Part shown: piece after piece, positions 7,295 through 63,743 of the stretch
How positions within the stretch are numbered: position 1 is the stretch's first letter
Layout of the letters: each line of letters begins with the position of its first letter
Assembly: GCA_035221665.1 (NCBI GenBank)
Contig: CM069133.1
Location: 96,596,001 to 96,660,000, forward strand
From: Okamejei kenojei
Taxonomy: Eukaryota
DNA length: 64,000 nt
Reading direction: 5' to 3'
Notes under the pieces: generated by a model
What the model saw: the letters and a program-made list of their open reading frames with translations, nothing else
Told to the model about the DNA's origin: nothing
Database searches by the model: none
Translations under genes and position numbers: made by a program

Positions 7295-8510
7295 AAATGT
7301 CCCGAGCTCCGACATAGCCGCTACGTTCATCCTACGTGTTTACATGTTTGATTTTTTTTAAACTCAGGGGAGCTCTTGTGTGAACTTGCACAGTGGGACA
7401 AGGCTTCACACCCGCTGAGTTTCTCCAGCATTTTTGTCTACCTTCGATTTTCCAACATCTACAGTTCCTTCTTAGACGTTTTGCGGTGATGGTTGCATCT
7501 GCGGTTCCTTTCTGTTGGAGGGGGGGGGTAAGGGAAGAGTCCTGGCCCATGGCGGCTCCTGGTCCATTCCCTCCGTGGGTGCCACCTTGCCTGCCGAGTT
7601 CCTCCAGCACTCTGTGTTTTTTGTTTGGCTCTGAAGTTGAAGGTGGACCCCCCTGTGTCTACCTTCAACTCCCTGTCTGTGGTGGCTCAGCGGGACGGGC
7701 AGGGGGTCTGGGGAGAGGGTTGCGTTTCTGGTTCTTCAGACAATCACAAGTACTCTCACCGACGATAGTTCAGTTCAGTCTGAAGAAGGGTCTTCTCTCC
7801 AGAGTCACTGCGCAGCCTGTCCCGCTGAGCCACTCAATTGTTGCTGTACTGAGGGATAGCCAAGTCTATCCCTCATTGGTAGCAGTTGATTGGAAGCGGC
7901 TGTAAAAGGACAGCGCTGCTGGGGGGGGGGGGAGATTTCCATTCACAGCATGTGGGTATTTTGTCCGGGGGTAACGTTGCGGGGAGGGCAGGAGCATTGA
8001 GAAGGAGGGGGTCGGCCAGGGATCATCCAGCTCAAGAGCGGGTCAGCGGGCGATGGATAACAGGGCAGCGGTGGAGCTTACTCCAAATGTCAGGGCAAGT
8101 AACCTCAACTGATCCCTTGTTCACGCTGACACAGGAGTAAGCTACACCGCCCGCTGTGATGTTATCCTTCACCCACTGACCCACTCCGCTCTATGATCTT
8201 TGCTCTTGAGCTGGTCCCCTCACTGTTCAGACGAGGAGCACTGCCAGAGGTGAGCGGGCCGGCAGAAGGCGTTGAGTTGGCAGTCGGTTCCGTTGTCTCG
8301 TGATGGCGGCCGCTCGTAGCCACGCGAGCTGTTTCCCTCTCCGGCCACAATGTGGTGGTTCCGCGCCCGGAAGCGATGAGGCAGCGGTGAGTGAGTGAGT
8401 TACTGGCATGAATCCGACCCTCTCCTTCTCAACGCTTCTGCAACTTTACCCCTGGCTAGACTCTCCACACGCTGTGAAAGGAACTCTCCCCCGAATTGTC
8501 ATGTCACTCA
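7295..8510. repeat. GC-rich mosaic repeat built from Penelope terminal-repeat pieces; homologous to 60180-60590 and 62440-62760
   Basis: 7480-7830 is the reverse complement of ~60190-60530. 8224-8500 is the reverse complement of ~62440-62757. Confidence 0.7.
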
Positions 8511-8574
8511 CAACACATTTATAATTATTTATTTATATTTCTACGAACATGTTTCCCAATTGGACCCGCACCTC

Positions 8575-9985
8575 CCAAGGCCGGCCCTGCGTATGTTAGT
8601 ATGCTCTCTGTGGTGCAGCGGGAGAAGCTGTTGGGGCAGACCAGTCATTTTCTGTGTTCTCAGGAAGAACAGTCGTTGCTGTGCGTTCTTGACCAGCGCA
8701 GCGATGTTGGTGGACCATGTGAGGTCCTCTGAAATGTGTGTACCCAGAAACCTAAAGCTGGACACTCTCTCCACACTGTCCCCGTTGATAGAGATTGGAG
8801 CGTATTCCCCATTATGTGTCCTCCTGAAATTGATAATCAGCTCCTTGGTCTTAGAGGTGTTTAGGGACAAGCTGTTACCTCAATCTGTAGTTTGTTTCAT
8901 CACCGTTGGTGATCAGCCCAATCACCGTTGTGTCATCTGCAAACTTGACAATGGTGTTGGTGTTGAATGCAGGAACACAGTCGTGTGTGAAGAGGGAGTA
9001 GAGCATGGGGCTCAGTACACAGCCTTGTGGTGTGCCGGTGCTCAGGGTGATAGTGGAGGACAGATGCGGGCCCAGTCTCACTGCCTGCGGTTGCTCCATC
9101 AGGAAATTCAGGATCCAGTCGCATATCGGTGAGCTGAGGCACAGCTGGTGGAGTTTGGTGGTCAGCTTGGTGGGGATGACCATATTGAAGGCAGAGCTAT
9201 AGTCTATGAAGAGCATCCTCACGTGGGTGCCCTGTCTTTCCAGGTGACTCAGGACAGTGTGAAGAGCCAAAGAGATGGCATCCTCTGTGGATCTATTTGC
9301 CCCAAATGCAAATTGATGAGAGTCCAGTGAGGCAGGGATGCTGGATTTGATGTGTGAGAGGACTAGCCTTTCAAAGCACTTTATGTGTATTGGAGTTAAG
9401 GCAACCGGACGGTAGTCGTTCAGGTTGATGATTTTTGACTTTTTTGGCACCGGCACTATGGTAGCTGTCTTCAGGCACTTGGGGAGCCGTTGCCAGGGAT
9501 AGAGATAGGTTAAAGATCCTCGTGAATACCTCAGCCAGCTGTACAGCACAGTCCTTTAGTACCCTTCCTTGGACTCCGTCCGGGCCTGCAGCCTTGCGTG
9601 GATTGATCCTTTGCAGAACGCACTGTACATCCTGTGTGCTCAGTGTTAAGCCCTGTCCCTCCTCCATGCCTGGGGTTATTTCACACTCCTGGTGGTGTTG
9701 CCAGTTTCGAAGCGGGCAAAGAAGGTGTTTAGCTCGTTGGACAATGTACAAAAATCCAGCCCTGACTGTGGCCTCCTGGTTAAAAGTGAGGTTCAGTGGG
9801 GTGGTGGGTGTAAGAGTAAATGGGATTGATTGCACTGTCTGTCAGCATCACTCCAAGTGCTAGATTCTCATGAGGTGGAACAGTCATGAGGTGGAAACCC
9901 CCCCCCCCCCCCCCGCAGCTTCCTGGTATCATCCTTGTAAATCTTCTCTGCACTCTTTCCAGTTTAACGACATTCCTCCTATAGG
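8575..9985 (-). mobile_element. Rex1/Babar LINE RT fragment, disrupted
   Basis: Motifs [81 protein letters not shown]. Confidence 0.9.
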
Positions 9986-19092: not shown

Positions 19093-20605
19093 TCTAAAAG
19101 GAACAGTTTTCTTTCTCACCAATACCTGTACCCATGTCACAAGGATTTAATTCATTTTGCAACGCAATATTCTTTGTGCCTTGTAGTCAATGGTCTGACC
19201 AATTTGCACGTAGCTCGGTAAGCAATAGTGAGATTGTTACCTTTGCGATTCCAATTTTTAATATGGATACCAACTGTTCATGTCCCTTCAGCAGAACATC
19301 CTGCTCAGTTTTATCTATGCTATTGCTTTCCACATAAATCACAACAATGGATCACTCCCTCTCCAATTCCTAGTTCCTTCATGGGGTTGATGTTTTCACA
19401 TTCATCAGCAATTGTAAACTAAATCACCAACTCTCTATTATGCATTATGATAAAATAAATGGAAGATTAAATTATTATATTAAGTGCAAAACATCAAATA
19501 ACATTTTAGTGAAAGGTTGCACTATGAAACACAGCTATTAATGATTAAAATAATGAACCAGGAACAAATCATTATCTAACATCAATTTCAGTACATCATT
19601 CCATGACAAAAAAATCCACAAGGCCACAGAGCTGTTTAAAATGGAGAGACTCAGCATGAGTCTAAGTATTGCTTCTGGCCAGTCCTGCTACACTTATTTG
19701 GTCGCTGGTATTGGTAATGATTTTGGAATTTGTTCAAAGAAACTGAGGAGAATGGAGAACCGTTCTTCGCCACTGATTCATTGCCTGGACATTGAGAACA
19801 CTGGGGCTGTTTCAGCATGGCTGTTGGATCTAATAGTGCATTCATAACAAATCCTCAGACACTGTGACCATCATGATCAAGCGTGTATGAAACTAATTAC
19901 AGAAACAAAGGCTGAGGTTTCTGAGCCACTTCTCTTTGTACAGAAACCATCCAGGAACAAGCAGGAATCGACCTTTCATTCTCCTTGCACCAGATTTAAT
20001 ATTCAGAGAAAATGCTGCAATTTTGGAAACTCTAATAATGACGAGCCTTAAACCAGTAAAAATATTTTAATTAATTGTAAATAGGAGTTAATATTTCTTT
20101 ATCATCAATATCGTGGTCTTTTCTACTATTAAAAAATTAATGGTTGATGTAACCAAAATTACCGTAGGACTTGATAATCATCAACAATTGCTAGAAAAAA
20201 ACTCAATCAAATCAGCTTACACAGCAAACCTTGTCCCCAGTAACCAAGTTCCGTCTTATCACAAATGAAAATGTACAAGTTATTGCATTTCACTCCATTA
20301 CAGGACCTTTCCCCTGTCTCATTCTTCCAAGCCATCACTGCTGCACCGTAAACAAAGGCGTCGTGCTTTGTGGGATGCATATTTTTTTTGAAAAAAAATG
20401 CTTCAACTGAAGAAGACACATGTTTGTAGGAAAACATAAGCTGGGTAATATAGTCTTCTAATCAGCAGATTGGGAACAATAGTAGAAGGCAGCACTTGAA
20501 ATTTAAAATAGAAGACTACTAATTGCTACCTTTTAGTAGGAAGAGCAAGGGGAAACAATGTAAACCAAAGGACACAATTGAAATGGGTTACAACATTGGA
20601 TACAT

Positions 20606-57005: not shown

Positions 57006-59637
57006 CGTTTACAAAGTACCCCCGCCAACTCCTACTATGTTCTGTCCCCCCCCCCCCATTGTTCATCGTTCTTCCCCCTCCCTCATGGTGGTCTCCCCAT
57101 GCTGGGTCCCCCATTGTTATTCCCCCTCCCTCACAGTGGGTCTCCTGTGCCCTCATCGGCCGCCGCACCACCAACCATGGGTCGACCCGCGAGGCTCCAC
57201 CGCCGCTGCCGAGGCTCCATTGGCTCAGGGAGGCTTCGCCACCCGACTTCTCCACAGTCTCCTGGGAGGCGTCTGCTGCCAGGGCCACGTAGGACGCCTG
57301 TGGGTGCGAGTAAGGTCTACCGGGCGGTTCTTCAGCAGGTGAGTCGCTATCATTTTACTGACCTGCAGAATAGGCTTGAGTGACTGATCATCCTACTGCT
57401 GCTATTGTTTCTTTCATTCTAATGTTGTTATGTCATTCTCTCTTTCCCCTTTCCACTTCAAATGCTTTTGTATTGATGTAATTTCTCTTATGCTTACCTG
57501 TATTCATCTTCTTTGTCCAACACTCACTCTGAAAACATTTGTATCTGCCTTCCTTTCATTTGTCTTCCAACATTTCCCTTTAACTTGTGCTTTTCCATTA
57601 GGAATGTTGATGAAAAACGATTGTATTTAATGCTAAGAGTCTAGTTTTTTTCAAAAAAAACCTTTTATTTAGAGACACAAGGAAGTGCAGATGCTGGAAT
57701 CCTGAGTAAAACGTGGTTATGCAGCATCTTTGGAGGTAATAGACAGGCGAGGATTTCGTTCAGGACCCTTTTTTAGACTGCTTATAGTAGAGGGGATAAA
57801 GTTGGAAAATAGATGGGAATGGGATAAGGCCTGAAAAGTGATAGGTGGATACAGGTGAGAGGGGTGATGATAAGCAGATGAGTGGAGATAGTGACAGAGG
57901 TGAATAGGAGACACTAAAGAATGTCAGATAAGCAGAGAAGAGGAGTGAAATGTAAAGCCAGAGTAAATCCAGCACTTTGTGTTTTTATCCCTTTATTGAC
58001 TTTGTTATTGCCAAGTCAAAATGGAAAAATTAAATAACAAATTGCCAACACCATCTATTGCAACATAACTGGTGAAAATTTATTCCCAGTCAGTGGAGTA
58101 AAATTCTGCTTCCAAAGTTCAGTTCCTTAAAAAAACAACAGAAAATTTGAGAAACACTCAATGGGTCAGGTAACATCTGCAGAAGGGGGAAGAGAGTTAA
58201 CTTTTTAGCTTCTGGCAGCCTGCTGCCTGACCTGCTGAATGGTTCCAATATTTTCTGCTTTTATTTCAATTATTTAAACTTTTAGTGATTTTCATTGATG
58301 CTTGGACTTGATTTTCAAAGTGTGCAGTTGTTAATTGTACCCAGATTAACAGGAGCGAGTGACTGGCAGTTAGCTGCACAGGGTTCGGTGGTGCAATTCC
58401 AAAGGTTGCCCAAAAATGTATTATCCCACAACGGTTTGAGAGAAAACCGCAATGCATTGGAGGAATTCAGTGGGTCAGGTAGCATCTGTGGAGGGAAATG
58501 TTTTGGGTCAGGACCCTTATTCAGAATGAAAGTGTCTGAAGAATGTTCCTGACCCAAGCCATTGTCTGTCCATTTCCTCCAGCAGTGTTTTGTTCAAGAT
58601 TCCAGTATCTACAGTTTATTGTGTCTCCATGTTTGGGGCGTCCAAGGTTCTGTGGAATGTACATACTGTGAGAATGTTGAGAGAGACAGAGAAAGATAGA
58701 GAGAGAGGCATTTGTCTCATGTGACAGGGTTATCGCACGCACAATATTGTTGTAACTTAGAGGTTTGATACCTGAATTGCATCCTAAGAAGCTTTAATGG
58801 ATTTTTTAAAGATGCTGACATGCAGAAATTCTCTGCTTACACAATGCATTGGGGTTAGCTTCCTTTAAAAACAAAGAGCTAATGCTTTGAAAAAGTGGTA
58901 GTGAATGTGAACTTTTGATTTCCCCAGCTGAAATGTATCCTATCGTGAATATTCACTTGAAATATCTTTGCACTCAAAATCTTATTGAAGTGCATCTCAC
59001 TATAAATACTGAAACTGCGTTTAATCATTGGGAATGTAATTTAAAATTATGACTTTGTAACATTAAAAACGATATCAAGCACATTGACACGGATACCAGA
59101 CAGGAGAGGGGAAGAGAACTAAAGTAATGATTGCTCGGCTTGGAGGGTAGGAGCCTGCGAAACTTGGTGTTAGATCAAAGCAGCTACAGCTTCTCTTGTC
59201 CATGACAGTGAAGTTTAACCTGAAAATAAGACCTCTCAGCCACAAAGAAGTTGCTGACAAGTAGAAGTGATTTGGACAGCCACTGGAAGTTGTGCCTCAT
59301 TGAATTATAGATAGATTGACCCATGGGGTAGTTGTGAGTATACACAGGAACAAGGGGAGGCAAAAAGAAATGAAGGGTTTCTAGAGGAAGATGTTACATT
59401 AAGATTACTGTAATCCCTCAACCTCAAGTACCATTTTACTGAGTGATGGAAATGGGTTTTAGGAACTAGGGGGACACTAAGGTCCGTGCAGCTGAGGTTG
59501 GGAAGGGGGGGGGGGGGGGGGGGAGATTTTCTTATGTGCGGTCATACCCATGTAAGAATTCAAGAATGTATCACTTTTTTATGGTGTATTTATAGTATAG
59601 TTTATTGTGTATTATATGTCATAGCGGCTTTCTTGCA

Positions 59638-59675
<38 letters not shown>

Positions 59676-59754
59676 CTCTGTAGGCTGCAGCCATCGTCCG
59701 CTTCGGTGAGGGAAGCAGGTCGGTGATTGATCAAACGGCCCTTAGGAGACTGTG

Positions 59755-59922
59755 TCTGATTGGCCACCGAGTGACCAGCATATTATGTGATTAGACACAA
59801 TGCCCTGGGAGACAGCGGCTGATTGGACGGGAGGAGACCAATTTGTTGATTGGACGGGAATTTTAAGGGAAGCTGGTCGGTGATTGGACGTAACTCCCTG
59901 AGAGACAGCGGTTGATTGGCCA
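59755..59922. promoter_or_regulatory. Cluster of six CCAAT/ATTGG boxes
   Basis: ATTGG at 59759, 59822, 59849, 59883 and 59915; CCAAT at 59838. Confidence 0.4.
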
Positions 59923-60015
59923 CCAAATAATCGGGCACAAAAAAAATTAAAAACAGGAAAAAAATAAAATAGGAATTACGATTTAAATCAGTAGAATATC
60001 ATGTCTGATCTGCAG

Positions 60016-60047
60016 CAAAGATACTAGTATCCGCTCTGGTATCTTTG
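60016..60047. mobile_element. 32-bp TIR-to-TIR remnant, P-superfamily-like
   Basis: CAAAGATACTAG...CTGGTATCTTTG flanked by a perfect 8-bp TSD ATCTGCAG (60008-60015 and 60048-60055). Confidence 0.75.
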
Positions 60048-60589
60048 ATCTGCAGTTCCTTCCTATTGAAGAAGAACCCCGGCCTGAAACAACTCCTAAT
60101 CCATTCCCTCCACAGATGCCGCCTAGCCCGCTGAGTTCCTCCAGCACTCTGTGTTTTTTATTTAACACACGAAATTGAAGTTAGCCATAAAGCTGGAGTA
60201 ACTCAGCGGGACAGGCAGTGATTCTGGAGAGAAGACGCTTCTTCAGACTGAACTGAACTCTCATCCGTGAGAGTACTTGTGATTGTCTGCAGAAGGGTCT
60301 CGACCCGAAATGCCACCCACTCTCCAGAGCCGCTGCCTGTCCTGCTGAGCCACCCAAGCCTGGGCCCTGTCCACCTTCAACTCCAGAGGCAAACAAAAAA
60401 CACAGAGTGCTGGAGGTACTCAGCGGGCCAGGCGGCACCCACAGAGGAAACGCCACGGGCCAGGGTTCCCCCTCCCCCACCCCCCCAACAAGAACGAACC
60501 GCAGATGCAGCCGTCTCTGCAAAACGGCAAATGATTCCGGGAATGCCGACGTAAGAGGGTGAGAGAGAGAGAGAGTGAGAGAGCAAGTG

Positions 60590-60986
60590 AGATCCAAAGG
60601 ACAGATTTGGATCCCAACTACGCCTCGTTGAGACCTCGCCAGAAGTTTCAAACCTATGGCCCCCTCAAGTTCAAACCACATGGACCAAGATACCATGTTG
60701 TAAACATCCACGTTCGCTACTTTTACTGGGAGTTCGCGTTCCACCATAGACTCGCCAGCGGTTTACAGCTGTTTGATATCCGCTTCAGGAAGGAGCGGGT
60801 GGTCTACAAGTTGAGTGTCCAGGAGGTGAACTCCGTTTACGGCGGAGAGACGCCAGGTCTGATGAGGGCCAAGTTCTTAGACACTCGTTATGGAATTGGG
60901 AAAAGTTCTAATGAGCTGGGGAAGACGTGGACTGCCCTTACAGTGCCACTTTCCTCCACATTCTCCATCTCATGGTGACTGGAAAC
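60590..60986 (+). pseudogene. Copper amine oxidase (AOC1/2/3 family) exon fragment, frameshifted
   Basis: Encodes GPLKFKPHGPRY..WEFAF..SGLQLFDIRFRKERVVYKLSVQE..YGGETP..KFLD..GIG; after a frameshift at ~60920 it reads VDCPYSATFL. The paralog cannot be assigned. Confidence 0.85.
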
Positions 60987-61102
60987 CAAAGATCCTATAA
61001 CGGAGCAAGATAGTCCACTCGACGAAAAAGACGTAGTAGGGTCATGGGTAATCTTCAGCATCATTTCAGTAACCGGCTTCCGTCTCTGCTCTAGTATCTT
61101 TG
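60987..61102. mobile_element. 116-bp MITE with CAAAG TIRs (P-superfamily-like); no TSD
   Basis: Left end CAAAGATCCTATAACGGAG versus reverse-complemented right end CAAAGATACTAGAGCAGAG (15/19). Confidence 0.65.
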
Positions 61103-62199
61103 CTTTGGTCATGGCTTCTTCATTCTTCATGCAGAAATCTTATTTTTTCTCAGCTGCAGGTGATCATTTTGATATTCCTGCCTAGTCCTCCTTTTTAACT
61201 TTGAACATACAAAATATTGCCATTTGGAAGGAGCTCCTTCACCCACTCAAGCATTTCATCATTTAGTAAGATCCAACAACTAGTGAGCAGTCCTGAGCTA
61301 CTATCCAGCTCATTGGAGAACCTCAGACTATCTATGACTGGACTTTACTGGACTTTATCTTGTGCTAAATGTTATTCATGTTATTCTCTTTATCATGTAT
61401 CTGTACTGTGGATGGCTTGATTGTAATCATGTATTGTCATGTTGACTGGTTTGCACACAACAAATATTTTCACTGTACCTCGGTACATGTGACAATAAAC
61501 TAAACTAAACTAAGATTCCTGGTCAGGAGTTCTGAAAAGCCAGTAACAATTCAACTAAGGCCTGTTTTATAAACATAAGCAGGCCAGGAGAAGAAAGTCT
61601 CCAGCACAAGACTCCCCTGACTCTGAACAAGGGTCTTGACCCAAAATGTCACTTATCCATGTTCTCCAGGGATGCTGCCTGATCCATTGTGTTACTCCAG
61701 CATTTGGTAAATTCCCAGGAGAAACATCAATCGTACATCTAACCATTGCCACATCAAAGGGTTGGACCTCAGTAATAGGACACCCATCACTGTAAAGTAA
61801 ACCTGAGACTAGTCAATTAAGAATCAAAATGTTTGCAGATGCCAAAAATATGAAATAAAAACAGGACAGAAAAATGGAAATACTGAGCAGGTCAGGCAGC
61901 ATCTGTGGAGAGAGAAATAGAATGAATGTTAAGGCTACTGTTAGTAGACTAGAATGTGGAGCAGAAGTTACAATCAGATCAAACATGAGTGCCATGAACT
62001 TATTCACGGTCTGAGCATGCGGAAGGTCTTGATTGTCTACTCTGAATAATAACGTTAGTATGTTCATGTCAGTGACCATTCAGCAGATGAAAGTATGTTC
62101 AAGGTCGTCTTTTTATTAAGGGAATATCAGTATATCAATAAGATGTATCACAAAAGATTCAGAAAATGATCATCCCAACAAGAAAATGTAACTACCTAC

Positions 62200-63743
62200 C
62201 AGGCAGGTGCCGTGAGTAATTACTCAGGGTAGGCAGTCAGCCGGCTTTTTAAAAAAAAAAACTTAAACCGCGCATGCGCAGATTATTCTCTTCGTAAAAA
62301 ATAAGTAACAATTCAATTTTATCAAGGCTTCTCAATCTCCTTCATTTTCTAATCACTGAATGGGTGAGGGGCGGAGGATGAAGGCAGGTGGAGAGATGGT
62401 GGGAAAAACGGGAGCACACCGGGACGTTGAACCAGTTGTCATCTTATTGAATGACAATACTAATTCAAGGATCCATTTGGAGGGAGCGTTCCTTTCACAG
62501 CGTGTGGAGAGTCTGTGCCAGGGGTTAATGATGCGGGGAGGGCAGGAGTGTTGAAAAGGAGGGGGTCAGAGATCATATCAGTAACTCACTCACCGCTGCC
62601 GCAGCGCTCCGGGCATGGACAGCAGAACTGGCCGCCACTTCCGAGGATAGAAGCAGCTCGGGTGCGTGCAGCCACCGGGACCCGACAACAGAACCGGCTG
62701 CCACTTCAGCGCCTTCTGCCGGCCCGCTCACCTCTGGCAGTGCTCTCCGTCTGAACATCTCTCACCTGCCGCTCGCCGGCTTCGCTCATGTCAACCGCAT
62801 CCCGCAAATCCTTAAATTCCCACAGCTGAGTAACCTCAACTGGTCCCGTGAACGCGCTGTCGGAATTTAAAGATTTGCGGGATGCCACCGGCGAGCGGCA
62901 GGTGAGAGATGTTCAGACGGAAAGCACAGCCAGAGGAGACGGGGACTAGCAGACGGGGCTGAAGTGGCAGGGTCCCGGCGGCCGCTCAAAGTCAGTCACC
63001 CGAGCTGCTTCCTTCCTCGGAAGTGGCGGCCAGTTGTGCTGTCTGTGCCCGGAGCGCTGCGGCAGCCACCCAAGCTAATTCACTCCCCGGCCACAATAAA
63101 ACCATATAGCAATTATAGCACGGAAACAGGCCATCTCCGCCCTTTTACTCCGTGCAGAACACTTACTCTCACCTAGTCCCATCTACCTGCATTCAGAGCG
63201 GAGTGTGGCAAGTGGGTTACTGACCCCGAACCTGTCCTTCACAACGCCAGACTCCCCAAACACTGTGAACGGAGCTCTCCCCCCCCCACCCCGGGAAATA
63301 CAGTATTTACAAAAATTAAGCACCAAGAAATGCACTTACCACGTTATTGGTAGATTAAGTCCATTCTTCACTCTTTGTTTCCTGAGAAACTCTTAAAATA
63401 ATGGCAATCCATATTCAAAAATCCCACCAAGAAACTCGCGCTGGGCATGCGCAGTATACTGCTGCGCCTGCGCAGTACTGCAAAGGCAGAATTTCTGCTG
63501 CCTTCAACTCCCCTTGAAACTGACGGCTCAGACAGCGCTGACGGCACGTGGACTGCACAGCCCTTCCCGTGTTACAAGCGCTGCGGACGAAAGGCACGGA
63601 GAATTATGCCTACCTAAGAGATCCATCTCTTAGAGAGGCATAATTCTCCCATGCCTTTACTATTTATATTTAATAATTGCCATTTCATAATTTTAGTCAG
63701 GGTAGGCAGTGCCTACCTTGCCTACCCTGACGGCACGTGCCTG
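62200..63743. mobile_element. Non-autonomous hAT-like DNA transposon (1544 bp)
   Basis: 14-bp TIR CAGGCA(G/C)GTGCCGT, perfect 8-bp TSD CTACCTAC (62192-62199 and 63744-63751), subterminal GGGTAGGCA repeats. Confidence 0.88.

Follow-up and report, generated by a model that had tools for sequence, protein, structure and literature searches.

A 32-bp pair of fused P-superfamily ends in the genome of Okamejei kenojei, probably an excision scar amplified within a host repeat

We analysed a stretch of 64,000 nucleotides from Okamejei kenojei (contig CM069133.1, positions 96,596,001 to 96,660,000; referred to here as the window), in which the 32 bp at 60016-60047 consist of two P-superfamily transposon ends that are fused to each other and enclosed by an 8-bp target-site duplication. 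We consider it likely that this piece is a donor site repaired after excision by a THAP-domain P transposase, which would have cut 20 nt inside the element ends (18 nt in a sister family), and that the resulting scar was then amplified in a host repeat. The ends, the duplication, the empty site, the amplification of the host, a parent with P-type coding sequence and a sharp limit on retained end length were all directly observed, with genome searches run on the 2.76-Gb assembly.

Results

Two transposon ends joined within an 8-bp duplication

The 32-bp piece lies between two identical copies of ATCTGCAG on the plus strand, at 60008-60015 and 60048-60055, confirming the perfect target-site duplication reported in a preliminary description of the window. 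Its first 12 nt (60016-60027, plus strand, CAAAGATACTAG type) correspond to a P-family terminal repeat and show the same end type as the intact elements L287 and L288, while its last 18 nt (60030-60047, minus strand) correspond to the outermost 18 nt of the terminal repeat at the other end of the element, with 17 of the 18 identical to the family end. A short junction fill at 60028-60031 (plus strand), whose last 2 nt are shared with the right arm, completes the palindrome GATACTAGTATC at 60020-60031, which had also been recognized in the preliminary description. The junction thus belongs to the class 12 + 18 with 2 extra nt, and the fill would be a templated insertion of the same class as those of Drosophila (PMC2895639, in part). 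The left 16-mer of the piece has 518 matches in the genome compared to 6 for its reversed control, which, together with the existence of host copies that carry a single ATCTGCAG, excludes a chance origin. The single copy in the window shows no sign of function.

In the adjacent sequence at 60048-60450, copies of a short and abundant repeat, which presumably contains a hammerhead-like core, are arranged head to head (arms of 60 nt, 85%). The target 8-mer ATCTGCAG of the scar is the end of this short repeat.

The right 16 nt of the piece agree with 61087-61102 at 14 of 16 positions, as had been observed before. However, the 116-bp stretch that ends there (60987-61102), previously regarded as a related element, was rejected as element or parent: not one of 26 copies, taken from 30 loci, is flanked by matching 8-bp sequences. 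Its 116 bp form the beginning of a larger, non-autonomous P element (835-911 bp), represented by L287 and L288, which have real 8-bp duplications. In the window, the left end of this element is nested in the host repeat and covers 60987-61217 on the plus strand, with 82% identity over 251 nt to positions 1-250 of L288. Non-autonomous derivatives with duplications are abundant, with sizes from 395 to 1883 bp (1208 matches to the 25-nt end), and one derivative of 74 bp is also present.

Amplification of the scar as a passenger of a host repeat

The scar is located in a composite, non-coding element with terminal inverted repeats (TIRs), whose start is (C/G)AGTGATGGAAATGG (CAGTGATGGAAATGG) and which spans about 59441-61252 of the window on the plus strand, with coverage by 18-47 loci. 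The window's copy has no right terminal repeat; in L008 and L081, the host is complete at both termini and flanked by its own 8-bp duplications. The host may be a hAT element.

Among the first 30 loci, 24 of the 27 distinct ones with the window's left end have the same duplication and the same flanks within one host. Of these 24, 21 contain 32-33 bp or damaged forms, two contain 20 bp and one contains 25 bp. Host copies with an empty site, that is, with a single ATCTGCAG, gave 35 matches versus 0 in the control (69-84% identity to the window's copy in the 12 compared), and, given that such copies exist, the 8 bp represent a true insertion duplication. In a tree of 25 scar-bearing and 12 empty copies (20-mer copies left out, weak support, midpoint root), the two states require 2 label changes compared to 10.4-10.6 when shuffled, with 0 of 500 shuffles as low; judged from these sequences, the tree supports the clustering of scar versus empty copies and no order of events. 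The shared site and flanks, the empty copies and the tree together argue for one insertion and one scar that formed once and then spread with its host. The window's 32-mer is therefore a passenger, one scar copied hundreds of times inside the host repeat.

The preliminary description held that many identical 32-bp copies would speak for a mobile mini-MITE. Such copies are formally present, but they stem from one scar copied with its host. It is very improbable that the remnants are tiny mobile MITEs that make their own 8-bp duplications: even though the hundreds of near-identical 32-mers would suit this explanation, the 24 loci described above share one duplication and one set of flanks in one host, rather than being identical copies at many target sites.

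Host copies with an intact element at the window's site were not found (3 matches, all of them scar variants), nor did any site occur in the empty, the intact and the scar state alike. At one other site (L294), a longer end was found beside scars. The 20-mers at the window's host site would be explained most simply by a later deletion between two 8-nt repeats (CTAGTATC) in the 32-mer. The host copies L003-L026 form a young subfamily with outer flanks in common, indicating that the host itself is nested in another amplified repeat.

Independent remnants across the genome

Excluding the window's host, the fused-end pattern has 4437 matches in the genome compared to 709 for the control. From a position-ordered sample (the first 100 matches listed, all on C1 within its first 73 Mb), we obtained 86 distinct remnants, about half of which are passengers of a few hosts. 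As expected of footprints, stubs of both ends lie inside both copies of an 8-bp duplication (at most 2 mismatches) in 73 of the 86 remnants, and in 17 of 17 loci of the short-end family described below, while duplications of 6, 7, 9 and 10 bp were found in 0, 1, 0 and 0 remnants, respectively. This sample contains 27 classes, 23 of them outside four big hosts, with imperfect flank clustering that merged a few unrelated sites. Scaled to the genome, it would correspond by extrapolation to roughly 900 excision events. A wider sample, whose later additions are enriched for long remnants and in which two cluster merges are wrong and the CTGCAGAA 38-mers were put together with the window's site, has the duplication in 146 of 170 remnants, with 53 site clusters and 57 junction classes.

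The target consensus of the remnants is (G/C)TNNNNA(C/G), and most junctions are located at microhomologies of 1-6 nt. The preliminary description anticipated a length peak near 30-34 bp; discrete length classes with 8-bp duplications do occur at many independent sites, but in place of a single peak there are peaks at 22, 24, 28, 33, 34 and 38 bp.

Several individual cases were observed along the way. In the coding P elements L121-L140, two sites in the first intron are occupied by scars that belong to the elements' own family and are flanked by 8-bp duplications (e.g., L135 at about 2700-2810, coding orientation). L325:1501-1540 is a 40-bp scar with the signature of a templated insertion, in that its insert copies the flanking duplication together with the outermost bases of the end; near-identical copies of it recur among the short-end remnants. 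The scar in L244 has flanks that resemble an arm of a fold-back element of about 470 bp at 62595-63066 of the window, which has nested inverted arms (91-93%). Also in the window, 19898-19946 contains 33 bp of the form CAAAG...CTTTG (19906-19938) between two perfect copies of TACAGAAA. With 6 matches versus 1 in the control, none of them related, this piece was rejected as a member of the family; a local duplication or an old scar from a different family might account for it.

Coding copies of the parent element

The model PF21787 has 39 matches in the genome, and the 30 loci compared show a mutual identity of about 74-98% among the alignments listed. A search for full-length elements in 20 extended transposase loci retrieved L134 (6452 bp, TIRs and 8-bp duplication, 0 mismatches) and L137 (4892 bp, TIRs and 8-bp duplication, 1 mismatch), which differ in their outer flanks. 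Despite these unrelated flanks, both have nearly the same target 8-mer, CTTTCAAC.

In the coding copies, the left end is followed by the THAP exons and then by the RNase H and GTP-binding domains. THAP (PF05485) was found above the cut-off on exon 2 of L137 (E 1.6e-9) and below it on exon 1 (E 0.004), and the split RNase H with a GTP-binding insertion was found above the cut-off with PF21787, PF21788 and PF21789 in L136 and with PF21787 in L137. The only PDB match of the transposase is the Drosophila P transposase (E 2.6e-29 and 1.2e-28). Aligned to 6P5A, the catalytic residues D230, D303 and E531 (FDEM, CDQG, VVEN) are found, and the GTP-site residues K385, V401, S409, F443, D444, N447 and D528 are kept, while K400 is R (list of residues from PMC7776569, in part).

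The expectation of autonomous copies that encode THAP and a P transposase thus agrees with the full-length elements L134 and L137, but an intact transposase was found in none of the 20 loci examined out of 39, with the longest stop-free frames being 124-566 aa. In L132, at about 7500-9150 (coding orientation), a 546-codon frame with zinc-knuckle and protease-like motifs looks, by eye, like an LTR-retrotransposon insertion in the P element.

The terminal repeats of the family are imperfect, about 40 bp long and start with CAAAGAT, and their first bases, CAAAG, would fit the CANRG start that the preliminary description gives for P-superfamily ends, a consensus that did not turn up in the literature covered. 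The target consensus (G/C)TNNNNA(C/G) resembles hAT targets, and the ends could on this basis be attributed to a hAT element (8-bp duplication, NTNNNNAN target); yet they enclose THAP, TNP-like RNase H and GTP-binding domains. Given this coding content, the hAT reading has next to no probability and is already refuted for the elements examined. As the preliminary description had supposed, the partner is P and not hAT and, judged from its ends, its THAP and P-transposase exons and its PDB match, the parent of the remnants is a true P element.

A sharp limit on the retained end length

When matches are counted by the length retained on one side (both strands, passenger copies included), 497 have at least 17 nt, 284 at least 20 nt, 31 at least 21 nt and 7 at least 22 nt, with 0 in the controls, and among the 7 matches one clearly retains more than 22 nt. 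This shows a sharp upper limit on retained end length, which is not 17 nt but 20 nt, or 18 nt in the short-end family. Intact ends are fixed to 25 nt and remain similar up to about 40 nt, so that any longer retention should have been seen. The microhomology products within 20 nt (22, 24, 27, 28, 33 and 38 bp) were all seen at independent sites, and the 16+16 30-mer product was not seen among the remnants. Among the matches with at least 22 nt there was no exact microhomology product that needs at least 23 nt, including one with a 4-nt microhomology; this better microhomology, at positions 24-27 of the end, was never used. L251, scored as 25 nt retained but ambiguous, is one substitution away from a 25-nt product. 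Blunt 20+20 joins at L299 and L300 and a 20+20-2 join at L304 have perfect duplications at different sites.

The 31 matches at 21 nt continue with A, and the independent sites L157, L159, L244, L245 and L253 can be read as 21-22 nt. Because the limit coincides with a GC microhomology, the tail could be 1 nt longer (21 nt). Taking this uncertainty of 1 nt into account, the enzyme likely cut 20 bases into the ends, and 18 bases in the sister family.

These numbers bear on the suggestion in the preliminary description that the cleavage geometry is the same as in Drosophila, where the greatest retained length equals the overhang of 17 nt and the junctions fall into the same classes (PMC2895639, in part; overhang also in PMC7776569, in part). 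P excision with a 17-nt overhang, in which longer tracts are templated fill-in, would account for the window's scar taken alone (12 + 17 or 18 nt), and some junctions, in 30-mers, are blunt at 17. Against this, positions 18-20 are retained exactly in 284 of the 497 matches with at least 17 nt, although on neither end could a 17-nt tail serve as template for them, and both the blunt 20+20 joins and the 20+20-2 join are found at independent sites. Given that a 17-nt overhang is unable to leave 20 nt or more, the Drosophila geometry is not supported, and we assign it very little probability. The window's scar by itself fits either 17 or 20 nt, and it is the family data that decide.

A further explanation is internal deletion without a defined cut, either by TIR collapse through hairpin slippage or by aborted sister-chromatid gap repair joined at microhomologies. 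It would be in line with the microhomologies at most junctions, with the derivation of the host-site 20-mers from the 32-mer by deletion between two copies of CTAGTATC, with the 74-bp derivative and with the rare remnants that keep 26-34 nt (L227, L247 and one 46-mer), which are what gap repair would give. Gap repair followed by end joining is, moreover, common after P excision in the fly (PMC2895639, in part). However, the terminal repeat extends over about 40 bp, yet retention drops from 284 to 7 matches between 20 and 22 nt, the 4-nt microhomology at 24-27 is unused, and blunt joins stop at 20 or 18. The host's own terminal repeat, a weak control because it is shorter, gives no such series: it has 134 fused-end matches per strand versus 9, the full terminal repeat continues in 0 of 50 matches listed, and an 8-bp duplication is present in 1 of 10 loci examined. 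We therefore regard internal deletion as improbable, and as already largely refuted by the retention cliff.

A sister family with shorter ends

The left ends of five coding copies are two bases shorter, and remnants with such short ends have 439 matches, the commonest being 18+18-2 = 34 bp, with blunt 18+18 joins also present. Among the 100 matches listed, as judged by eye, 6 extend beyond 18 by one further base of the end and 1 by two. All 17 loci examined carry an 8-bp duplication. The 34-mer is found at 9 different sites among these 17 loci, as could be expected from a mobile mini-MITE, but the 34-mers mix end types, as expected from different parents. Additionally, the remnants do not have the inner repeat that is gripped by the Drosophila enzyme (PMC7776569, in part), and two cuts placed 18 nt in would presumably leave no paired DNA. 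A one-base-shorter end type also exists (20+19-2 = 37 bp, L148).

In all three end types, the kept tract stops just before AAGAT, a repeat of tip positions 3-7. The strand-transfer complex of Drosophila contains a required helix, which forms when the transferred strand folds back onto the 5' part of the non-transferred strand and pairs with it (PMC7776569, in part). A cut directly before AAGAT would, in a post hoc consideration, permit five fold-back pairs, and we infer, with less weight than the cut length, that the inner cut was placed just before an AAGAT able to pair with the tip. Nevertheless, the transposases of the 20-nt family and the 18-nt family belong to different subfamilies (about 79% identity), so that two fixed rulers explain the lengths of 20 and 18 nt as well as a sequence-set cut does. 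We thus put forward only tentatively the notion that P transposases have no fixed 17-nt cut, that an internal tip repeat (AAGAT here) onto which the tip folds sets the inner cut, with spacer changes giving overhangs of 18, 19 and 20 nt, and that natural excision scars, perhaps a thousand or so, persist in this genome as a record of where an extinct enzyme cut.

Discussion

In the mechanism that we propose, the transposase would cleave one strand at the tip, with the cut on the complementary strand lying 20 nt inside (18 nt in the sister family), which would leave two 3' single-stranded tails on the chromosome. End joining would fuse these tails at microhomologies, bluntly, or with short templated fills. 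In the case of the window's scar, the left tail may have annealed at CTAG, been extended by 4 nt with the other tail as template, and then come off and annealed again at TC. This path corresponds to the class of templated insertions that, in flies, has been linked to polymerase theta (PMC2895639, in part). Snap-back on one tail and copying from the other end yield the same letters at this junction; copying from the other tail would be the simplest path, given that snap-back needs a loopless hairpin.

The remnants are similar to Drosophila donor-site junctions (PMC2895639, in part), in which two terminal-repeat stubs lie inside an 8-bp duplication, joined by annealing of the terminal 2 nt, internal microhomology, blunt joining or templated insertion, with a length capped by the overhang. 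They differ in the cap, which is 20 nt here (18 in the sister family) versus 17 nt in the fly, in the end sequence, and in forming a natural germline archive at many sites, with some scars amplified by hosts, in place of a laboratory assay. The coding element shares with Drosophila P (PDB 6P5A/6PE2; PMC7776569, in part) the THAP domain, the split RNase H, the GTP-binding insertion, the catalytic D, D and E, most GTP-site residues, the 8-bp duplication and the presence of introns. In contrast to Drosophila P, it has imperfect repeats of about 40 bp starting with CAAAGAT and large non-autonomous families of 0.4-1.9 kb, and all examined copies are broken. Pdre2/zfTHAP9 of zebrafish (PMC10983969, in part) is likewise a P-like element of a vertebrate that has 8-bp duplications and derivatives with deletions, but its 13-bp repeats start with CATACC; deletions after its excision are reported there without an overhang length.

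P-like elements were thus already known from zebrafish (PMC10983969, in part) and P scars from fly assays (PMC2895639, in part), and the accessible parts of PMC4350176 and PMC3698922 contain no statement on vertebrate P scars or on the P cut length. In the literature covered, a scope outside which most subscription papers, supplements, Repbase and Dfam fall, we found no report of natural P scars in a vertebrate genome or of a P overhang other than 17 nt. A study on microhomology-mediated miniaturisation reportedly, by its title, concerns mobile MITE families from a Tc1/mariner element. The remnants described here are likewise short derivatives joined at microhomologies, but, unlike those MITEs, they are 19-40 bp long, capped in length and probably immobile.

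Taken as excision scars, the remnants would reflect large-scale excision of P elements in the germline of a vertebrate lineage, and they would also record the outcomes of germline end joining. Such scars may offer a way to read the cut geometry of other P and THAP9 families, and the kept ends of 20, 19 and 18 nt, which form a natural series with the stop always in front of one internal repeat, would provide a direct test of how the cut is positioned.
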